Positions 3,089-14,946 of a stretch of 26,823 bases of DNA are shown here, piece by piece. Positions within the stretch are counted from its first letter, which is position 1. Every line of letters begins with the position of its first letter. Both the position numbers and the translations under genes were made by a program. Origin of the DNA: a virus; UHGV virus genome UHGV-0250493, one strand, 5' to 3'. The notes below the pieces were generated by a model, which saw nothing but the letters and a program-made list of their open reading frames with translations, ran no database searches and was not told the origin of the DNA.

Positions 3089-3286
3089 ATGCTAAAACAG
3101 CAGGATATGACAGAAACCGCCAGAGTAGTGTTTAATGAATTAAGCGTTACCGAACCGGCGACAGTCGGGGAGATTGCACAGAATACTTACCTTTCACGCG
3201 AACGCTGCCAGTTAATACTGACCCAGCTGGTTATGGCGGGTCTGGCAGACTATCAGTTCGGTTGTTACAGACGCCTTCCGCAGTGA
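3089..3286 (+). CDS. hypothetical small protein, 65 aa
   Basis: ATG 3089 with AAGGG 8 nt upstream, in frame within track ORF 3002..3286. First ORF after tR'. Start is uncertain (alternative ATG at 3106). Confidence 0.4.
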   Translation: MLKQQDMTETARVVFNELSVTEPATVGEIAQNTYLSRERCQLILTQLVMAGLADYQFGCYRRLPQ

Positions 3287-3436
3287 AGGCTTTTTTATTT
3301 GTGGTAAATGGGCGGCTGGTGGGTGTTAGGGGCACCCACCAGCCATCTGCTCATGCGTTGGGTTCACAAGCAAACCTCAGGCCCACTGCTTTGCGCAAAA
3401 GCAGAATGAGCCTATCAGAGACAGGCTTAATGATCC

Positions 3437-4486
3437 ATGCTTAATACTGTAAAAATATCCAGTTGTGAGTTAATCAACGCCGACTGCCTGGAATTTATCC
3501 GGTCGTTACCCGAAAATTCTGTTGACCTGATAGTCACGGACCCGCCGTACTTTAAAGTGAAGCCTGAGGGCTGGGATAACCAGTGGAAGGGCGACGATGA
3601 TTACCTGAAGTGGCTGGACCAGTGTCTGGCGCAGTTCTGGCGGGTGCTGAAACCTGCCGGAAGTCTTTACCTGTTCTGTGGTCATCGCCTGGCATCTGAT
3701 ATCGAAATCATGATGCGTGAACGCTTCAGTGTGCTGAACCATATTATCTGGGCGAAGCCGTCCGGACGCTGGAACGGATGCAACAAGGAAAGCCTGCGGG
3801 CGTATTTCCCCGCCACAGAGCGCATTCTGTTCGCGGAACATTATCAGGGGCCGTATCGTCCGAAAGATGCCGGGTATGCGGCGAAGGGCAGTGCACTGAA
3901 ACAGCATGTGATGGCCCCGCTGATTTCTTACTTTCGTGATGCGCGCGCGGCCCTGGGGATAACGGCAAAACAGATTGCAGATGCCACAGGAAAGAAAAAC
4001 ATGGTGTCGCACTGGTTCAGTGCCAGTCAGTGGCAGCTACCGAACGAAAGCGATTATCTGAAATTACAGTCGCTGTTTGCCCGGGTGGCAGAAGAGAAAC
4101 ATCAGCGCGGTGAACTGGAAAAGCCCCACCACCAGCTGGTGGATACGTATACGTCACTGAACCGGCAGTATGTGGAGCTGCAGAGTGAATATAAGCATCT
4201 GCGGCGGTATTTTGGTGTGACGGCGCAGGTGCCGTACACGGATGTGTGGACACATAAACCGGTGCAGTTCTATCCCGGGAAACATCCGTGCGAAAAACCG
4301 GCAGAAATGCTGCAGCAGATAATCAGCGCAAGCAGTCGTCCGGGTGACCTGGTTGCAGATTTTTTTATGGGCTCAGGTTCAACGGTAAAAGCGGCACTGG
4401 CGCTCGGGCGTCGTGCGATTGGCGTTGAACTGGAGACCGGACGTTTTGAGCAGACAGTCAGGGAAGTTCAGGATTTAATCGTTTGA
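3437..4486 (+). CDS. DNA methyltransferase (N6-adenine/N4-cytosine class, DPPY motif)
   Basis: 349 aa with the catalytic motif DLIVTDPPYF near the N-terminus and a C-terminal AdoMet-binding-like FFMGSGST motif. No adjacent restriction endonuclease gene. Confidence 0.85.
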   Translation: MLNTVKISSCELINADCLEFIRSLPENSVDLIVTDPPYFKVKPEGWDNQWKGDDDYLKWLDQCLAQFWRVLKPAGSLYLFCGHRLASDIEIMMRERFSVLNHIIWAKPSGRWNGCNKESLRAYFPATERILFAEHYQGPYRPKDAGYAAKGSALKQHVMAPLISYFRDARAALGITAKQIADATGKKNMVSHWFSASQWQLPNESDYLKLQSLFARVAEEKHQRGELEKPHHQLVDTYTSLNRQYVELQSEYKHLRRYFGVTAQVPYTDVWTHKPVQFYPGKHPCEKPAEMLQQIISASSRPGDLVADFFMGSGSTVKAALALGRRAIGVELETGRFEQTVREVQDLIV

Positions 4487-4535: not shown

Positions 4536-4611
4536 GGCCCTTTAGCTCAGTGGTGAGAGCGAGCGACTCATAATCGCCAGGTCGCTGGTTCAAATCCAGC
4601 AAGGGCCACCA
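4536..4611 (+). tRNA. ileZ: tRNA-Ile2 (anticodon CAU, lysidine type; may be annotated as tRNA-Met)
   Basis: Cloverleaf folded by eye: acceptor GGCCCTT/AAGGGCC, D-arm GCTC...GAGC, anticodon CAT at 4569-4571, T-loop TTCAAAT, encoded CCA. Near-identical to E. coli ileX. Confidence 0.85.
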
Positions 4612-4618
4612 TCACATA

Positions 4619-4695
4619 CCGCCATTAGCTCATCGGGATAGAGCGCCAGCCTTCGAAGCTGGCTGCGCGGGGTTCAAGTCCCCGATGGCGGTCCA
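4619..4695 (+). tRNA. argN: tRNA-Arg (anticodon UCG)
   Basis: Acceptor CCGCCAT/ATGGCGG, anticodon stem CCAGC/GCTGG, loop CTTCGAA (anticodon TCG at 4653-4655), T-arm CGGGG-TTCAAGT-CCCCG, encoded CCA. Confidence 0.8.
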
Positions 4696-4708
4696 TTATC
4701 TGCATCAT

Positions 4709-4752
4709 GCGTTGTTAGCTCAGCCGGACAGAGCAATTGCCTTCTAAGCAGC
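4709..4752 (+). tRNA. tRNA-Arg (UCU)-like 5' fragment, apparently truncated (argO-like)
   Basis: Canonical acceptor 5' strand GCGTTGT, D-arm, and anticodon arm with loop CTTCTAA (anticodon TCT at 4743-4745). No T-arm or complementary acceptor 3' strand (ACAACGC) found by eye in the following 100 nt. Confidence 0.4.
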
Positions 4753-5120
4753 TGTGGTTGCACTCCTGTTGTTTCTGGTGGTGATGGTGGACTTCAGCAG
4801 CCGGATAATGTCGGTGCTGTCTGATGGTGTTTTGGTGGCGGGTGTGTGGTTGTTGCTTTCCCGTTGCTGAAAAAGAAAGCATCAGGCGATTAGCAGGGTA
4901 TCAGTTACCCGTTGAAATTTTTAAATACCTCACAATTCCACAGCTTGATGATTGTCTGGCTGCCGGAGAATTTGTTAAAAATTACATCGCATGGTGAATC
5001 CCCCTGTGCGGAGGGGCAATCAGCGAGTAGGTATATGGGATAATCGCGGATTCAGGTGCTGGTACTGAATTCACCGGGAGGCACCCGGCACCATGCAATG
5101 GCACATAGCGCCACTCTCCA

Positions 5121-5155
5121 GCCCCTCTCCGGAGGGGCTGTTTATATTGATTTTG
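5121..5155 (+). terminator. intrinsic terminator in the toxin-slot region
   Basis: Perfect 7 bp stem GCCCCTC-TCCG-GAGGGGC followed by the T-rich tract TGTTTATATTGATTTTG. Confidence 0.5.
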
Positions 5156-5174
5156 TCAGATGTGAGTAAACTCC

Positions 5175-5510
5175 TTATGGACTTTGTTGTTTTAGTCCAT
5201 AAGGACATATTTGCAGAGTGCAACGGTTATTAAAGCATTCATTCAATACGTTATCTGTATTTGTAGGGCATTCCTGGCTGTTTTTGATTAAATTCCAGAA
5301 TGTTTTATTGAATGGCACTACGTTGTAAATGGTTACAGGTAGCACTTTGTTATTGAGCATGATGCCTGTGTGAGTCAGTGTAAATATACTTTCAGGAGGT
5401 AAGAAAGCATCCGATTGATACCAGATTATTAATTTTATTTTACTCCATATGACTGAAAAAGATATTCCGCATGATGGCTGGATAACTGTATCAATCACAA
5501 TCCACTTCAT
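5175..5510 (-). CDS. hypothetical protein, 111 aa, in AT-rich DNA (Cys-rich C-terminus)
   Basis: Minus-strand ORF with ATG at 5510 preceded by AAGGAA 5 nt upstream, stop at 5175-5177. Plausible promoter upstream (TTTACA, about 15 nt, TATACT). Local GC is far below the flanking phage genes. No family recognised. Confidence 0.5.
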
Positions 5511-5770
5511 TTAGTTTCCTTGTTTATGCCTTGCTGGTGATGTTCTGAAAAGTATAAATGATATTTTTGATTGTAAACCATAGAGCAGAATTATTTTTCT
5601 GATGTTGTTTATTGTTTATTTAAATGCAGGGTGGTTTATATCTCGTCTTGTAGTTTATCCATGCATATCTGCTTGATGATGAGGTTTTTATTTAAGGTAT
5701 GGTTTTGTTTTTTTTCTGTATTACATGTCAGGTATTTTAAAGAATCATTTTTCAGATGGTGGAAAGAACC

Positions 5771-7627
5771 ATGGCATTTAAACACTATGATGTTGTCAGG
5801 GCGGCGTCGCCGTCAGATCTTGCGGAAAAGCTGACACATAAACTGAAAGAGGGCTGGCAGCCGTTTGGTAGTCCGGTGGCCATAACCCCTTATACCCTGA
5901 TGCAGGCGATTGCAGCAGAAGGTGATGTGGTCGTCAGTGGTGCAACTGAGCCGGAGTGGTACTACGTCATCGTACTGGCCGGGCAGTCCAATGCCATGGC
6001 TTACGGTGAAGGGCTTCCGCTTCCGGATTCATACGATGCGCCCCATCCGCGCATTAAGCAACTGGCCCGTCGTAACACAGTGACTCCCGGTGGCGAAGTA
6101 TGCGTATTTAACGACATCATTCCTGCTGACCATTGTCTGCATGATGTTCAGGATATGAGTACGATTAACCATCCCCGGGCTGACCTGAGCAAAGGGCAGT
6201 ACGGTTGTGTCGGACAGGGCTTACATATTGCCAAAAAACTGCTTCCGTATATCCCTAATAATGCGGGGATCCTGCTGGTACCATGCTGTCGTGGTGGTTC
6301 GGCATTCACCAAGGGCACGGAGGGGACATTCAGCGAGTCCACGGGGGCCAGTCAGGATTCGGCTCGCTGGGGAGTGGGTAAGCCGTTATATCAGGATCTG
6401 CTTTTCCGCACGAAGGCAGCATTGCAGAAAAACCCGAAAAACGTTTTGCTGGCGATATGCTGGATGCAGGGGGAATTTGACATGAGCGCTGCCACCTACG
6501 CACAGCAACCGGACCTGTTCACGGCCATGCTGAAGCAGTTCCGTACTGACCTTTCCGGATTTAACGCGCAGTGCCATGGCGGCAGTGCTGCAGTTGTACC
6601 GTGGATTTGTGGCGACACGACGTATTACTGGAAAAACACATACGGCACACAGTATGACTCCGTCTACGGCGCGTACAAAAACAGGGAGAGCGACAACGTT
6701 TTCTTTGTGCCGTTCATGACCGACGGTAACGGCAACAACACGCCCACCAACTTACCGGCAGAAGACCCGGATATTGCTGATGCAGGTTATTACGGCGCGC
6801 AATCCCGTAGTAATGGTAATTGGGTATCGTCAAATCGTCCGACACATTTCAGTTCATGGGCGCGCAGGGGCATTATTTCGGATCGCCTGGCAACCGCTAT
6901 TCTGAACGCAGTTGGTCGAACCAGCGCCTTCATCAGCGGTACCGCACCGGAGATTAAACCCTCGCCCGGCGGCGACACGCCATCGGGGCCGTCTGATGGT
7001 GACACATCCGTTCGTACAGTCTCCCTGCTGCCGACAGCCGGAGAGGCTGCTGCGCAGGGCTGGACCATCACCGGCGGCAGTGTTGCGCTGGAAGATGGTG
7101 TGTTTAAGGTTACCAAGCAGAGCAATAAAACCTGGTCCCTGATGCATCCGGTGGATGACGCAGTCTCCCTGCTGACACGGGGTGGCAGACTGAGCTGTAA
7201 GTTTCGACTGTCAGGCGCACTGACCAACAACCAGTTCGGTCTGGGAATTTATCTGTATACCGATGTAGCGTTACCTGACGTCGTGGCGATGACCGGGACT
7301 GGTAACCCGTTCCTGATGTCGTTCTTCACCCAGACCACAGACGGCAAACTGAATCTGATGCATCACAAGAAAGCCGGAAACACAAAGTTGGGCGAGTTCG
7401 GGAATTACAGTAACGACTGGCAGACGCTGGAGCTGGTGTTCACCGCCGGCAGTGCCACGGTTACTCCGAAACTGAATGGAGTGGCTGGCCCGGCATTCCA
7501 GGTCATAAAAGACAGTCTGACACTGGGGCTGAATGCGCTGACGCTGACGGATATTACCAAAAATGCAGCGTATGGCGTTGAGATAGAAAGTCTGGTGCTG
7601 GAGATAAATGCACCGGCATCATCATAA
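5771..7627 (+). CDS. nanS-p: prophage 9-O-acetyl sialic acid esterase (NanS-p type: DUF1737 N-terminus plus SGNH esterase plus C-terminal domain)
   Basis: N-terminal MAFKHYDVV...EGWQPFGSP (DUF1737-like), then the SGNH-type motif VIVLAGQSNAMAYG. Position matches the large ORF downstream of the toxin slot in Stx-type prophages. Start taken at ATG 5771 (GGAAAG RBS) rather than track start 5756. Confidence 0.8.
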   Translation: MAFKHYDVVRAASPSDLAEKLTHKLKEGWQPFGSPVAITPYTLMQAIAAEGDVVVSGATEPEWYYVIVLAGQSNAMAYGEGLPLPDSYDAPHPRIKQLARRNTVTPGGEVCVFNDIIPADHCLHDVQDMSTINHPRADLSKGQYGCVGQGLHIAKKLLPYIPNNAGILLVPCCRGGSAFTKGTEGTFSESTGASQDSARWGVGKPLYQDLLFRTKAALQKNPKNVLLAICWMQGEFDMSAATYAQQPDLFTAMLKQFRTDLSGFNAQCHGGSAAVVPWICGDTTYYWKNTYGTQYDSVYGAYKNRESDNVFFVPFMTDGNGNNTPTNLPAEDPDIADAGYYGAQSRSNGNWVSSNRPTHFSSWARRGIISDRLATAILNAVGRTSAFISGTAPEIKPSPGGDTPSGPSDGDTSVRTVSLLPTAGEAAAQGWTITGGSVALEDGVFKVTKQSNKTWSLMHPVDDAVSLLTRGGRLSCKFRLSGALTNNQFGLGIYLYTDVALPDVVAMTGTGNPFLMSFFTQTTDGKLNLMHHKKAGNTKLGEFGNYSNDWQTLELVFTAGSATVTPKLNGVAGPAFQVIKDSLTLGLNALTLTDITKNAAYGVEIESLVLEINAPASS

Positions 7628-10393: not shown

Positions 10394-10720
10394 ATGAAAA
10401 GAAATCTTCCGTTAATTATTTTGTTGTCTTCTCTGGTTATGGGCTGTACGCAACATAAAACAGATATGCCCCGACAGTTGGTTAAGGCATTACCACAATA
10501 TCCGGCCTATGCAGCGGCAAATTATATAAAGGGACGGGTTGATGTGAGGTTTGATATTGGTGCTGATGGTACTGTCACCCGAATTGAGTTTATTCGTTCA
10601 GAGCCGCACCATCTGTTTGATGAGCAGGTTGTAAAGGCGATGGCAAAATGGCGATTTGAGAAGGACAGGCCGTGTAAAGGCGTGAAGAAAACGTTTATCT
10701 TTAGTCCTTCTGCACACTGA
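10394..10720 (+). CDS. lipoprotein with TonB C-terminal domain
   Basis: Signal peptide with lipobox (LVMGC). The mature part PQYPAYAAANYIKGRVDVRFDIGADGTVTRIEFIRSEPHHLFDEQVVKAMAKWRF aligns closely with E. coli TonB residues about 160-230 (PQYPARAQALRIEGQVKVKFDV...REVKNAMRRWRYEPG). Confidence 0.75.
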   Translation: MKRNLPLIILLSSLVMGCTQHKTDMPRQLVKALPQYPAYAAANYIKGRVDVRFDIGADGTVTRIEFIRSEPHHLFDEQVVKAMAKWRFEKDRPCKGVKKTFIFSPSAH

Positions 10721-11749: not shown

Positions 11750-12340
11750 GTGCTGACAACGCAAAAACGAAAATTTGCGCTGGCGCTCATGTCCGGGAAA
11801 AACAAAACAGCGTCAGCCATTGCCGCCGGTTATTCGGCGAAGACCGCCAGGGTTAAAGGCTCGCAGCTGGCAAAAGATCCTGAGGTGCTTGCGTTTATAG
11901 CCCGTAAACAATGCGAGACGGTGGAGGTGGATGAGGTTCCTGTTTACCGGCAGAAAAAATCAGAGCAGGAGGATAAACCCCGTCGCCGTGAGGCGGCTGC
12001 AATACCACAGCCGGACGAAAACAATCTGGAGATGCCACCGTCCGCGGTGATGTCTCCTGGTATTGAATATATGGAGGATGGTCTTCCCGATCCGGTGAAA
12101 GCCATGGGGCGGATCCTGGTGGAAAACCTCTGCATTGATCCGAAACTGGCACTGGATGCGGCCTGGCGTCTGGCGCAGTTCACGCACCATAAAAAAGGGG
12201 ATACCGGGAAAAAATCGGCAAAAGATGATGCCGCGAAAAAAGCGGCTAACCGTTTTGCGGTGCCACCGCCACCCCGACTGGTGGTGAATCCGCCACCAGA
12301 GGTTCAACCCGGCTCCAGTCCAGAATACGCAGTTCTTTGA
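11750..12340 (+). CDS. terminase small subunit (C-terminal about 17 codons probably altered by a rearrangement junction)
   Basis: GTG start with GGAGGAGG RBS. N-terminal region KNKTASAIAAGYSAKTARVKGSQLAKDPEV typical of TerS. The 3' end overlaps, on the opposite strand, the end of the inverted portal fragment. Confidence 0.7.
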   Translation: MLTTQKRKFALALMSGKNKTASAIAAGYSAKTARVKGSQLAKDPEVLAFIARKQCETVEVDEVPVYRQKKSEQEDKPRRREAAAIPQPDENNLEMPPSAVMSPGIEYMEDGLPDPVKAMGRILVENLCIDPKLALDAAWRLAQFTHHKKGDTGKKSAKDDAAKKAANRFAVPPPPRLVVNPPPEVQPGSSPEYAVL

Positions 12341-12734
12341 TCTGCCCCCGGGCATTACGGATTTTCAGCACCACCGTATTGCCATGACGCAGTTTGGCGT
12401 TCAGCCACAGTTCAAAAAACTGGATGCGGTTCTGCTGGGCGTTGGGACGACGACAGAGGCGGGCAATATCCCCCCGGCGCGTTTCCCTGCGTATCCCATG
12501 CGCATCCGTCTGCATAAGACGCAGCCGCATTTTGGCGATATCCTGGGATATCAGCGAAATACATGCAAACACCGCATGAAAGGAGAGGACGGCTTCAGGA
12601 TCGGCTTTCACGCCCTGCTGCCAGGCGCCGGAAAAGGGCTCAGCCACCGCCTGAAACAGGCTGGTCCAGCCCGCCTCTCTTACGTCACGTCCTGATTTCT
12701 GGTTTTTTCGGGTTCGCCGTAAAAGGTTCCACAT
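12246..12734 (-). CDS. portal protein, N-terminal portion only (gene interrupted, inverted relative to its C-terminal part)
   Basis: ...SGAWQQGV...AVFACISLISQDIAKMRLRL...GNTVVLKIRNARGQIKELRILDWSRVEPLVAD matches the HK97-family portal N-terminus. After about position 12288 the frame runs 13 unrelated codons to a stop. Confidence 0.6.
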   Translation of the reverse strand: MWNLLRRTRKNQKSGRDVREAGWTSLFQAVAEPFSGAWQQGVKADPEAVLSFHAVFACISLISQDIAKMRLRLMQTDAHGIRRETRRGDIARLCRRPNAQQNRIQFFELWLNAKLRHGNTVVLKIRNARGQIKELRILDWSRVEPLVADSPPVGVAVAPQNG

Positions 12735-12901
12735 TCGCCATGCTCCGCATCACGTTTCTTTTTCTGACCTGCCGGACGTCGCACCGTGATGTACTCCGCC
12801 TTTCCCAGGCGAACCAGCACCTCCGCACACGGCTGTGCCACATCACGGATATCCCCGGCCCGGGCATCATGCGTGCCCTGCAGATATCGGATCTTTGCCA
12901 T
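12680..12901 (-). CDS. hypothetical small ORF between capsid and portal-N genes
   Basis: 73 aa ORF with weak RBS, overlapping the portal-N start in another frame. May be spurious. Confidence 0.2.
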   Translation of the reverse strand: MAKIRYLQGTHDARAGDIRDVAQPCAEVLVRLGKAEYITVRRPAGQKKKRDAEHGECGTFYGEPEKTRNQDVT

Positions 12902-12945
12902 AACCTGTTACGGGAGGCGCACGCCTCCCGTCCTCCTTATCAGAC

Positions 12946-14883
12946 TCAGCCGCCGGACGCACTGCCGTAGTTCACTCCGGTGATCACCGCCACCGCCGCA
13001 GTACGGCGACGACGCCAGTTGATCCAGCGCTCCGCACGGATGGCCACGCTGCCTGTCTGGAACATGGAAACCAGCTCCACCGGGGACGGCGTGGTACTGT
13101 CGCCGGTCGGCTCAGACTGCATTTCCAGTGATGCCTCGCGGGACATATCCACTGCCACGCCGCCGTCATCCGCCAGATAAATATCCGGGGCATTCACCAG
13201 CACCAGCTGGTCACCCACGTACTGGGAGACAATCACCGGCAGCCCCTGGAAGGAGCCACCCAGCAGGGTCATGTCCGGGTATTCCTTCTGACCCAGCGCA
13301 TTTTTACGCATGGACAGTGCCAGGGCATTGGTGCTGGACATCAGCCAGACCGCACCGGTGGGCTGCAGGTTTGCTGCCACAAACTGTCCAAACGCAGCCT
13401 CTGCATCCGCATCCGGGTTACCGGTTGATGCCGTGCCCTTCACATCATGGGTGATGGACGCCGGGGAGACATCTGCCACTGCGGCTTTTTTCGGGTCCAC
13501 AAAGTCTGTATCCAGACGCGCCACCACCGCTTCCGCCAGCGCATTACGGACCAGTGCATCAGCAGCCGGACTGGAAAAACGGATCAATTCTTCCGTCAGT
13601 ACCGCAATGGCCGACACCTTCGCATGACTGAAGGTGATGGATTCAAAATCAAACTTCGTCAGGGGTTTTGCCTTACCCTCACCCACCCAGCCGGCAGCAC
13701 CGCCGGACACCTGGGCGTGCACACGGATATTGAATGGCACCTGACGAAGTGCAGGGATCCCGCCCTGACCAAATCGCCCGATAATGGTCTGCGGACGCAG
13801 GTAATCAATAAAGTCCTGTGCGTATTCCTGATATTCAGACAGGCTGCCTGCCCACTGCGGATCCGTGGTGGTCCCCGCGCCCACTGCCGATTTCAGGACA
13901 TGATGCAGACGACTGTCATCCGGATACTGACGACGGGCCACTTCCAGGGCTTCAGATCGGACGCCTTTAGCCGCAGCCAGCGATTTGGCAAAGCGGGCGA
14001 AGCCAATCCCCTTATCCAGTTTCTGCTCCACACGGATCACCGGCGCAGAAGCCACCGCGGCCACATTCCCGTTACCGGCCTGTTTCACCGGCTGCGCCGT
14101 GGCGGCCTTACCGGCTTCCAGTTCACGCAGGCGCTTCAGGTGCGCATCCACCTGACGGATTTCCGCTGCGGTGTTGTCGTAATGCTCTTCCTCCTCCACA
14201 TCCAGCGTGCGCCCTTCCTCTGCGGCTTTGGTCATGACCTCCTCAAGGGAGGCTGCCAGCGCTGCACGCTTGTTTTCAAAACTTTTAATCTGTTCGCCAA
14301 TATTCATTATGGTCTTTTCCTTATGAAAAACGGTTGTTGACTGTGCCGCAGCGCCGGCAGAAGATGCGATTTTCACCACCGGTTTCCGGTTGCCGGACGC
14401 GGCAGAAAACGGGCGGTCGTAAGATTTAATGGTCCGGATGGTGCATTCCGCATTCGCGGGCACGGTGACGGCAGACACCTCCATCAGTTCCCAGCGCAGA
14501 AAATGCAGTCCGCCTCCGTCCAGAAAGGTGTATTCATGGGGACGGAAGCCCACGGACAGCCCCCTGACCAGCCCGGTCTTAATGGCCGCCCAGACCTCAT
14601 CCAGCCGGGCAGCCAGTTGCGACGGCATATCCGGTACGGGCTTCACCAGTGTTGCCGTGATTTCCAGCCCTTCGCTGACCCGGCGCACCGTACACTGCCC
14701 CACCGGGCGGGAATGGTCATGCTGCCAGAGAAACGGTATCGCACTGCCAAACTCCGCGCCCTCCGGCTCCAGGATGTCACCATCCCGATCCGGAGAAGGC
14801 GTTGACGCAATCCCGGTGATCACCCGTTCATCCTCACTGAAGGATTTCACCGTCAGCAGGGAACAGGCCCGTTTAAGAGTCAC
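12946..14883 (-). CDS. prohead serine protease - scaffold-like linker - HK97-fold major capsid protein fusion
   Basis: 645 aa. The N-terminus has prohead protease motifs (PFLWQHD, GLSVGF, EVSAVTVPAN). The middle is a charged coiled-coil-like region. The C-terminal about 300 aa has an HK97-type capsid pattern. GTG start with AGGAGG RBS. Confidence 0.8.
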   Translation of the reverse strand: MTLKRACSLLTVKSFSEDERVITGIASTPSPDRDGDILEPEGAEFGSAIPFLWQHDHSRPVGQCTVRRVSEGLEITATLVKPVPDMPSQLAARLDEVWAAIKTGLVRGLSVGFRPHEYTFLDGGGLHFLRWELMEVSAVTVPANAECTIRTIKSYDRPFSAASGNRKPVVKIASSAGAAAQSTTVFHKEKTIMNIGEQIKSFENKRAALAASLEEVMTKAAEEGRTLDVEEEEHYDNTAAEIRQVDAHLKRLRELEAGKAATAQPVKQAGNGNVAAVASAPVIRVEQKLDKGIGFARFAKSLAAAKGVRSEALEVARRQYPDDSRLHHVLKSAVGAGTTTDPQWAGSLSEYQEYAQDFIDYLRPQTIIGRFGQGGIPALRQVPFNIRVHAQVSGGAAGWVGEGKAKPLTKFDFESITFSHAKVSAIAVLTEELIRFSSPAADALVRNALAEAVVARLDTDFVDPKKAAVADVSPASITHDVKGTASTGNPDADAEAAFGQFVAANLQPTGAVWLMSSTNALALSMRKNALGQKEYPDMTLLGGSFQGLPVIVSQYVGDQLVLVNAPDIYLADDGGVAVDMSREASLEMQSEPTGDSTTPSPVELVSMFQTGSVAIRAERWINWRRRRTAAVAVITGVNYGSASGG

Positions 14884-14893
14884 ATCAGCCTCC

Positions 14894-14922
14894 TGAAAAT
14901 AAAAAAACCGCCGGAGCGGTTC
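14894..14922 (-). terminator. intrinsic terminator between TerL and the capsid gene (minus strand)
   Basis: On the minus strand, hairpin AACCGC-TCCG-GCGGTT followed by TTTTTTTATTTT, immediately before the AGGAGG RBS of the capsid gene. Confidence 0.5.
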
Positions 14923-14946
14923 GTGATGGTTACAGTGTGAACAGGG

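Follow-up and report, generated by a model that had tools for sequence, protein, structure and literature searches.

What occupies the toxin slot of a lambdoid prophage that has the late-region gene order of a Shiga toxin (Stx) phage and no toxin? The window considered here (the whole stretch of DNA analyzed, 26,823 nucleotides of UHGV virus genome UHGV-0250493) raises this question between its tRNA genes and nanS-p. The backbone order, Q, methylase, ileZ, argN, argO, slot, nanS-p, lysis genes, was recognized in the initial annotation as the one that carries stxAB in Stx phages, and the same lambdoid gene order is indeed found there. The slot itself had been described as holding a truncated tRNA gene, hairpin-rich DNA and an AT-rich orphan reading frame that had come in as a replacement for the toxin cassette. 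The answer reached here is plainer. We hold with high confidence that the region at 4709-5755 is a stretch of mosaic cargo belonging to the late operon of a lambdoid E. coli prophage, and that its elements are all already known, each having been described before and being labeled by standard annotation; no evidence against the identification of these elements was found. It is an ordinary region for an E. coli prophage: two broken genes (one for a tRNA, one small), the small RNA STnc100 and the anti-adaptor gene iraL. In map order (position, strand, identity, basis) the features are:

4536..4611, plus strand: intact tRNA with anticodon CAU, ileZ type (ARAGORN; Rfam tRNA, 72.5 bits)
4619..4695, plus strand: intact tRNA-Arg(UCG), argN type (ARAGORN; Rfam tRNA, 58.4 bits)
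4709..4750, plus strand: argO' remnant, the first 42 nt of tRNA-Arg(UCU) (alignment with intact argO)
4754..4870, plus strand: DUF3927/TciB pseudogene remnant, 38 codons from an internal GTG (Pfam PF13064, 42.6 bits)
4959..5149, plus strand: STnc100 sRNA gene with its intrinsic terminator (Rfam RF02076, cmscan)
5150..5769, no strand: AT-rich iraL module, 32.7% GC (composition, with the STnc100 terminator and the nanS-p start as bounds)
5175..5510, minus strand: iraL coding sequence, 111 aa, RssB anti-adaptor of the IraM/IraL family (111/111 to CFT073 IraL)
5511..5578, minus strand: iraL 5' UTR and putative promoter (match to the CFT073 5'RACE sequence)
5756..7627, plus strand: nanS-p type sialate O-acetylesterase, the right-hand backbone gene (Pfam: DUF1737, SASA and DUF6645); PGAP starts it at 5771 and names it "SASA family carbohydrate esterase"

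The minus-strand reading frame at 5175-5510 had been taken for a gene of no recognizable family. It is iraL. Its translation is identical at every one of 111 positions to that of CFT073 IraL (C_RS06710, WP_000871291.1), and WP_000871291.1 is the RefSeq protein both in the identical locus of strain AF58 (PGAP) and in the CFT073 potB prophage. Against the NCBIfam profile NF007393 (anti-adapter protein IraM) it scores 162 bits (cut-off 121, E 4.7e-48), with residues 1-110 aligned on profile positions 1-113 of 114, and in a sequence search its residues 1-78 match the IraM chain of PDB 8TWD (E 9e-32). A Pfam search with the same 111 residues returns no match, and this probably accounts for the "orphan" impression. 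(The other small reading frames of the region, at 4715-4882 on the minus strand, 4824-4997 and 5631-5834, match no Pfam or NCBIfam family, and are treated as spurious because they overlap the tRNA remnant, STnc100 or the iraL promoter.)

That the gene is well signaled, as first described, is borne out: the sequence AAGGAA lies 5 nt before its ATG, and a promoter of its own can be assigned by reference to CFT073, where the 5' sequence of iraL mRNA has been determined by 5'RACE (ACATCACCAGCAAGGCATAAACAAGGAAACCA, 32 nt; PMC4045071). That sequence matches CFT073 exactly, and matches the minus strand of the window at 5542-5511 with one substitution, which would place the transcription start at 5542 and give a 32-nt leader containing AAGGAA. 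Seven nt upstream of this start is a -10 hexamer, TATACT, at 5555-5550, the same in CFT073 (the assignment of the hexamer is ours and not that of the cited paper), and -35-like sequence (TTTACA/GGTTTA) is found at 5571-5578; iraL is accordingly provided with what reads as its own σ70 promoter. Three differences from CFT073 fall in the promoter and leader, within ~45 nt of the transcript start: one beside the -35-like hexamer, one at -2, and one in the leader, 4 nt before the ATG. At the other end of the gene, a perfect 11-bp inverted repeat with a 10-nt loop (CCTTATGGACT ... AGTCCATAAGG; 5175-5206, minus strand) covers the last codons of iraL and its stop codon and, read on the iraL strand, lies ~35 nt upstream of the STnc100 terminator hairpin; it may be a 3' end structure of the iraL mRNA.

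In CFT073, IraL interacts with RssB, and the log-phase half-life of RpoS drops by half when iraL is deleted (Hryckowian et al. 2014, PMC4045071); RssB binding and RpoS stabilization have also been shown for the S. sonnei iraL, and IraL has been reported to be enriched in uropathogenic and Shigella isolates (PMC4045071). By binding the adaptor RssB, the CFT073 protein slows degradation of RpoS by ClpXP and raises the level of RpoS in log phase. We infer the same anti-adaptor activity in the host of this prophage because the reading frame, ribosome-binding site and -10 hexamer are conserved and the transcript-start sequence is a single substitution off; rssB and rpoS lie outside the window, and the presence of these targets is assumed from the species.

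Might this copy of iraL nevertheless be unexpressed or inactive, left over in a prophage that is decaying? Both of its left-hand neighbors, argO and tciB, are remnants, three substitutions distinguish its promoter and leader from those of CFT073, and the prophage would be defective if an inversion that splits its portal gene is real. Set against these considerations are an intact reading frame whose protein is identical to that of the active CFT073 allele, a -10 hexamer and ribosome-binding site as in CFT073 with only the substitution at -2 in the transcription-start context, and the retention of the STnc100-iraL block in at least 26% of complete E. coli genomes (1416 of 5426 cover the query, 4700-5760, to the required 80% or more). 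We regard a silent iraL as unlikely.

The inversion just mentioned concerns 12290-16630, which is turned relative to the late operon and places the portal N-terminus, a prohead protease-capsid fusion and the large terminase on the minus strand; it splits the portal gene, the C-terminal part of which is at 16589-18439 on the plus strand, and separates terS from terL. The AF58 prophage, otherwise 99.98-100% identical, has a terL-to-portal deletion in place of the inversion. None of the 5426 complete E. coli genomes has sequence spanning the 12289/12290 junction, and 12290-16630 is not flanked by inverted repeats of 20 nt or longer; either this is a strain-specific inversion that makes the prophage defective, or it is a misassembly. 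Two further observations from elsewhere in the window can be recorded with it. A hokD toxin reading frame (51 aa) opens the window at 11-166; the sok antisense RNA expected upstream of it is cut off by the window edge, and CFT073 has sok at the equivalent place. Just past the lysis genes, at 10394-10720, the identical AF58 locus is annotated with a small "TonB family protein" reading frame, which may be another cargo gene of the late region.

To the left of iraL the initial annotation had noted hairpins and an intrinsic terminator. Both are present, but the description of this DNA as anonymous and hairpin-rich gives way to a specific identification: it is the gene of a full-length STnc100 RNA (RF02076), scoring 133.7 bits against a gathering score of 47 (E 1.6e-30, model positions 1-206 of 206). 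A terminator scan finds a 9-bp stem with 7 GC pairs at 5119-5140, followed by the T-run TTTATATTGA; the folded RNA has a minimum free energy of -73 kcal/mol (z -2.2). The PGAP "hypothetical protein, partial" at 4985-5104 on the minus strand sits on this RNA gene and is probably spurious. The family is represented at the equivalent place in Stx2a_F723, phi296, JLK-2012, CFT073 and phage 1717, and the copy in the window is a diverged one, the Stx2a_F723 copy scoring 207.7 bits. STnc100 has been treated as a prophage sRNA related to PasD (bioRxiv 10.64898/2026.05.13.724894); going by the Rfam model alone, the copy in the window would be STnc100 rather than PasD. A consensus scan finds no promoter-like site on the plus strand upstream of 4959. 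Eleven STnc100 copies are transcribed in EDL933, one of them confirmed by northern blot (PMC5331693), and in Stx2 phages STnc100 lies 75 nt downstream of the stx2 operon (PMC12370729); by analogy with these other prophages, the copy examined here is probably expressed.

STnc100 is single in the window and in CFT073. Most close relatives of the locus have a tandem pair, as in E. coli 266917_2 (locus positions 3260-3453 and 3729-3917), and two copies are also found in the locus of phage vB_EcoS-813R8. Between the tandem copies are ~275 bp, among them the terminator that usually comes directly after argO, an arrangement resembling a fusion of two late-region modules. The single copy of the window is closer to the second member of the pair than to the first (95% vs. 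83%).

The tRNA cluster begins with two intact genes, of which the CAU tRNA at 4536-4611 is labeled tRNA-Ile by PGAP in the identical AF58 locus. The third, tRNA-Arg(UCU), had been said to retain only its 5' part, and this is correct: ARAGORN and Rfam find two tRNAs and no third one (at 4709-4790 there is no ARAGORN call and no Rfam match at E<=1), and similarity to argO ends abruptly past 4750, three nt into the 3' strand of the anticodon stem. Up to that point the remnant is identical to the intact argO of phage phi296 (42/42) and has one loop difference from that of Stx2a_F723. It keeps the 5' strand of the acceptor, the D arm, the anticodon loop and 3 nt of the 3' side of the anticodon stem, and is without T arm and acceptor 3' strand. 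A terminator-like hairpin that alignment places 3' of argO in Stx phages is also missing from the window. (In the induced, iraL-carrying phage vB_EcoS-813R8 the tRNA in the argN position, locus 2613-2700, appears to be disrupted or replaced in its middle part, and a single tRNA is annotated or detected at that cluster.)

What follows argO' is the remains of a second gene. The match of 4754-4870 to PF13064 is partial (profile positions 11-39 of 53); no ribosome-binding site can be made out before it; the first 8 codons of JLK-2012 TciB are absent, the junction having removed the 5' end; and the C-terminal frame is displaced by a 1-nt deletion. PGAP labels the identical AF58 locus "frameshifted". 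Homology to JLK-2012 starts exactly at 4751, within tciB. A deletion joined argO, at its nucleotide 42, to a tciB (DUF3927) gene, at its ninth codon, taking out the terminator normally located 3' of the tRNA cluster and leaving behind two dead, inert remnants (argO' and tciB, 4709-4870). Since the junction has no microhomology beyond 0-1 nt, the join looks like the product of illegitimate recombination. It is an inherited allele and not a private event: 325 of 5426 complete E. coli genomes share it (query, the 80 nt across the argO'/tciB join, at least 80% covered).

What do these identifications say about the slot? The arrangement of the cargo in related phages and prophages, from annotation and Rfam maps, is as follows:

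Stx2a_F723: argO, stxA, stxB, STnc100, AsxR (minus strand), nanS-p
phi296: argO, STnc100, nanS-p
JLK-2012: other tRNAs, tciA, tciB, STnc100, nanS-p
CFT073: argO, 566 bp, DUF3927, STnc100, iraL (minus strand), nanS-p'
Stx2c phage 1717 (NC_011357): three tRNAs, stx2cA, stx2cB, STnc100, IraM-family gene (opposite strand), nanS-p

In lambdoid prophages the DNA that separates the tRNA cluster from nanS-p thus offers no fewer than two neighboring positions for cargo. The first lies between the tRNAs and STnc100 and contains stxAB, tciAB or nothing; the second lies between STnc100 and nanS-p, and its occupant is AsxR, iraL or a different IraM-family gene. In Stx2a phages it is the antisense sRNA AsxR that takes the second position, and in Stx2c phages the other IraM-family gene; no AsxR-like RNA is found in the window (Rfam, E<=1). 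Since phage 1717 has both, the position of iraL is a neighbor of the stx position and its occupant can co-occur with stx. The window is collinear with the phage 1717 stretch over 4930-6093 (68% identity). That the slot lacks stx, as first reported, is confirmed: neither stxA nor stxB lies between the tRNAs and nanS-p, and the stx-equivalent position, from argO to STnc100, is here a segment of 208 bp (4751-4958) that contains only the TciB/DUF3927 remnant and is effectively empty.

The AT-rich block fills the second position. The sharp break in composition at its edges stands as described (the iraL coding sequence has 34.8% GC and the iraL upstream region 29.0%, against 54% for the whole window), and so does its separate acquisition: in comparison with Stx2a_F723, phi296 and JLK-2012, homology ends at ~5097-5139 and begins again at 5770-5778, coinciding with the edges of the block at ~5140-5150 and 5770.

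One could still propose that the prophage descends from an Stx phage, and that stxAB was lost in the very deletion that cut argO short. The left breakpoint is suitably placed, in argO, directly upstream of the stxA site in Stx phages, and loss of stx from prophages has been proposed (bioRxiv 10.64898/2026.05.13.724894). However, the right side of the junction is tciB, which in JLK-2012 follows tciA and not stx; no stx-derived sequence is left, and no trace of a former stx is found in this lineage; CFT073 has intact argO, 566 bp, DUF3927, STnc100 and iraL without stx; and in phi296 argO is directly followed by STnc100. As the arrangements of CFT073, phi296 and JLK-2012 are all without stx, non-stx states of the slot are common and suffice as ancestors, and we judge descent through the loss of stxAB to be very unlikely. 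The suggestion made at the outset, in which the toxin cassette gave way to a foreign AT-rich segment bearing a novel orphan gene, draws on the AT-richness of 5150-5769, the homology breakpoints at both of its edges and the absence of stx, but is almost certainly wrong: the gene is iraL (100% identity), and in phage 1717 stx2cAB, STnc100 and an IraM-family gene are all present, with order and orientation the same as here, which separates the STnc100-nanS-p position from that of stx.

Returning to the reading of the region as a mosaic of known cargo, one regulatory proposal can be attached to it. The iraL gene falls within the Q-dependent late transcription unit and is read from the other strand, immediately past the STnc100 terminator. 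With the terminator 3' of the tRNA cluster also lost in the argO deletion, read-through into iraL becomes possible: transcription from the tRNA or pR' promoters, especially after induction, could run through STnc100 and convergently into iraL, tying the stability of RpoS, and STnc100, to the state of the prophage. We put this forward as a speculation with a small chance of being right; if true, it would constitute a new regulatory link and not a new kind of gene.

What, then, is the case worth? The features first described are real and none of them is new: iraL and STnc100 are labeled by standard pipelines (PGAP and Rfam, respectively), the function of IraL has been in print since 2014, and little is gained beyond correct annotation. 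The locus does illustrate that a prophage without stx can still bring its host a physiological factor by way of this cargo stretch.

The closest known system is the potB prophage island of CFT073 (PMC4045071), which shares the STnc100-iraL-nanS-p neighborhood at 95.6% nucleotide identity over 4795-5990. It differs from the window in that argO is intact and is followed by 566 bp and a longer DUF3927 reading frame before STnc100, in that its nanS-p is truncated, and in its site: the prophage of CFT073 is at potB, while the window-identical AF58 prophage is beside ompW. The better-known relative of the protein, K-12 IraM (b1160), is a different paralogue of the same family, 62% identical to IraL over 107 aa and 4 aa shorter; all four C-terminal cysteines and Cys14 are conserved between the two. 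The K-12 gene, considered as a possible occupant of the same context, is not one: the coding sequences alone align (70% nucleotide identity), the flanks are unrelated, and there is no STnc100 beside K-12 iraM. Mg2+ starvation is what induces IraM; IraL, by contrast, acts in log phase and is reported to contact RssB in a different way (PMC4045071). The RssB-IraM structure (PDB 8TWD, for which IraM 1-78 was crystallized) names nine contact residues (PMC10844676). By alignment, five of the nine are identical in IraL (Cys14, Phe18, Trp30, Ile61 and Tyr62); the other four are changed from IraM to IraL as Thr13 to Ser, His63 to Asn, Ile64 to Val and Leu75 to Ile.

Phage 1717 and its relatives (e.g., phage 2851) share the order tRNAs, slot, STnc100, IraM-family gene (opposite strand), nanS-p, holin, endolysin, Rz, and differ from the window in having an intact argO and stx2cAB in the slot. 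Their IraM-family protein represents a third lineage, with 75% identity to IraL and 65% to IraM. Its gene (107 aa; phage 1717 locus 4001-4324) lies directly downstream of stx2B and STnc100 on the opposite strand, and is left unannotated in many Stx2c and Stx2a phage records. A tblastn search of a phage collection with IraL returns 46 records: four are induced phages without Stx, in which IraL is 98% identical, and ~40 are Stx2c or Stx2a phages with the third-lineage protein.
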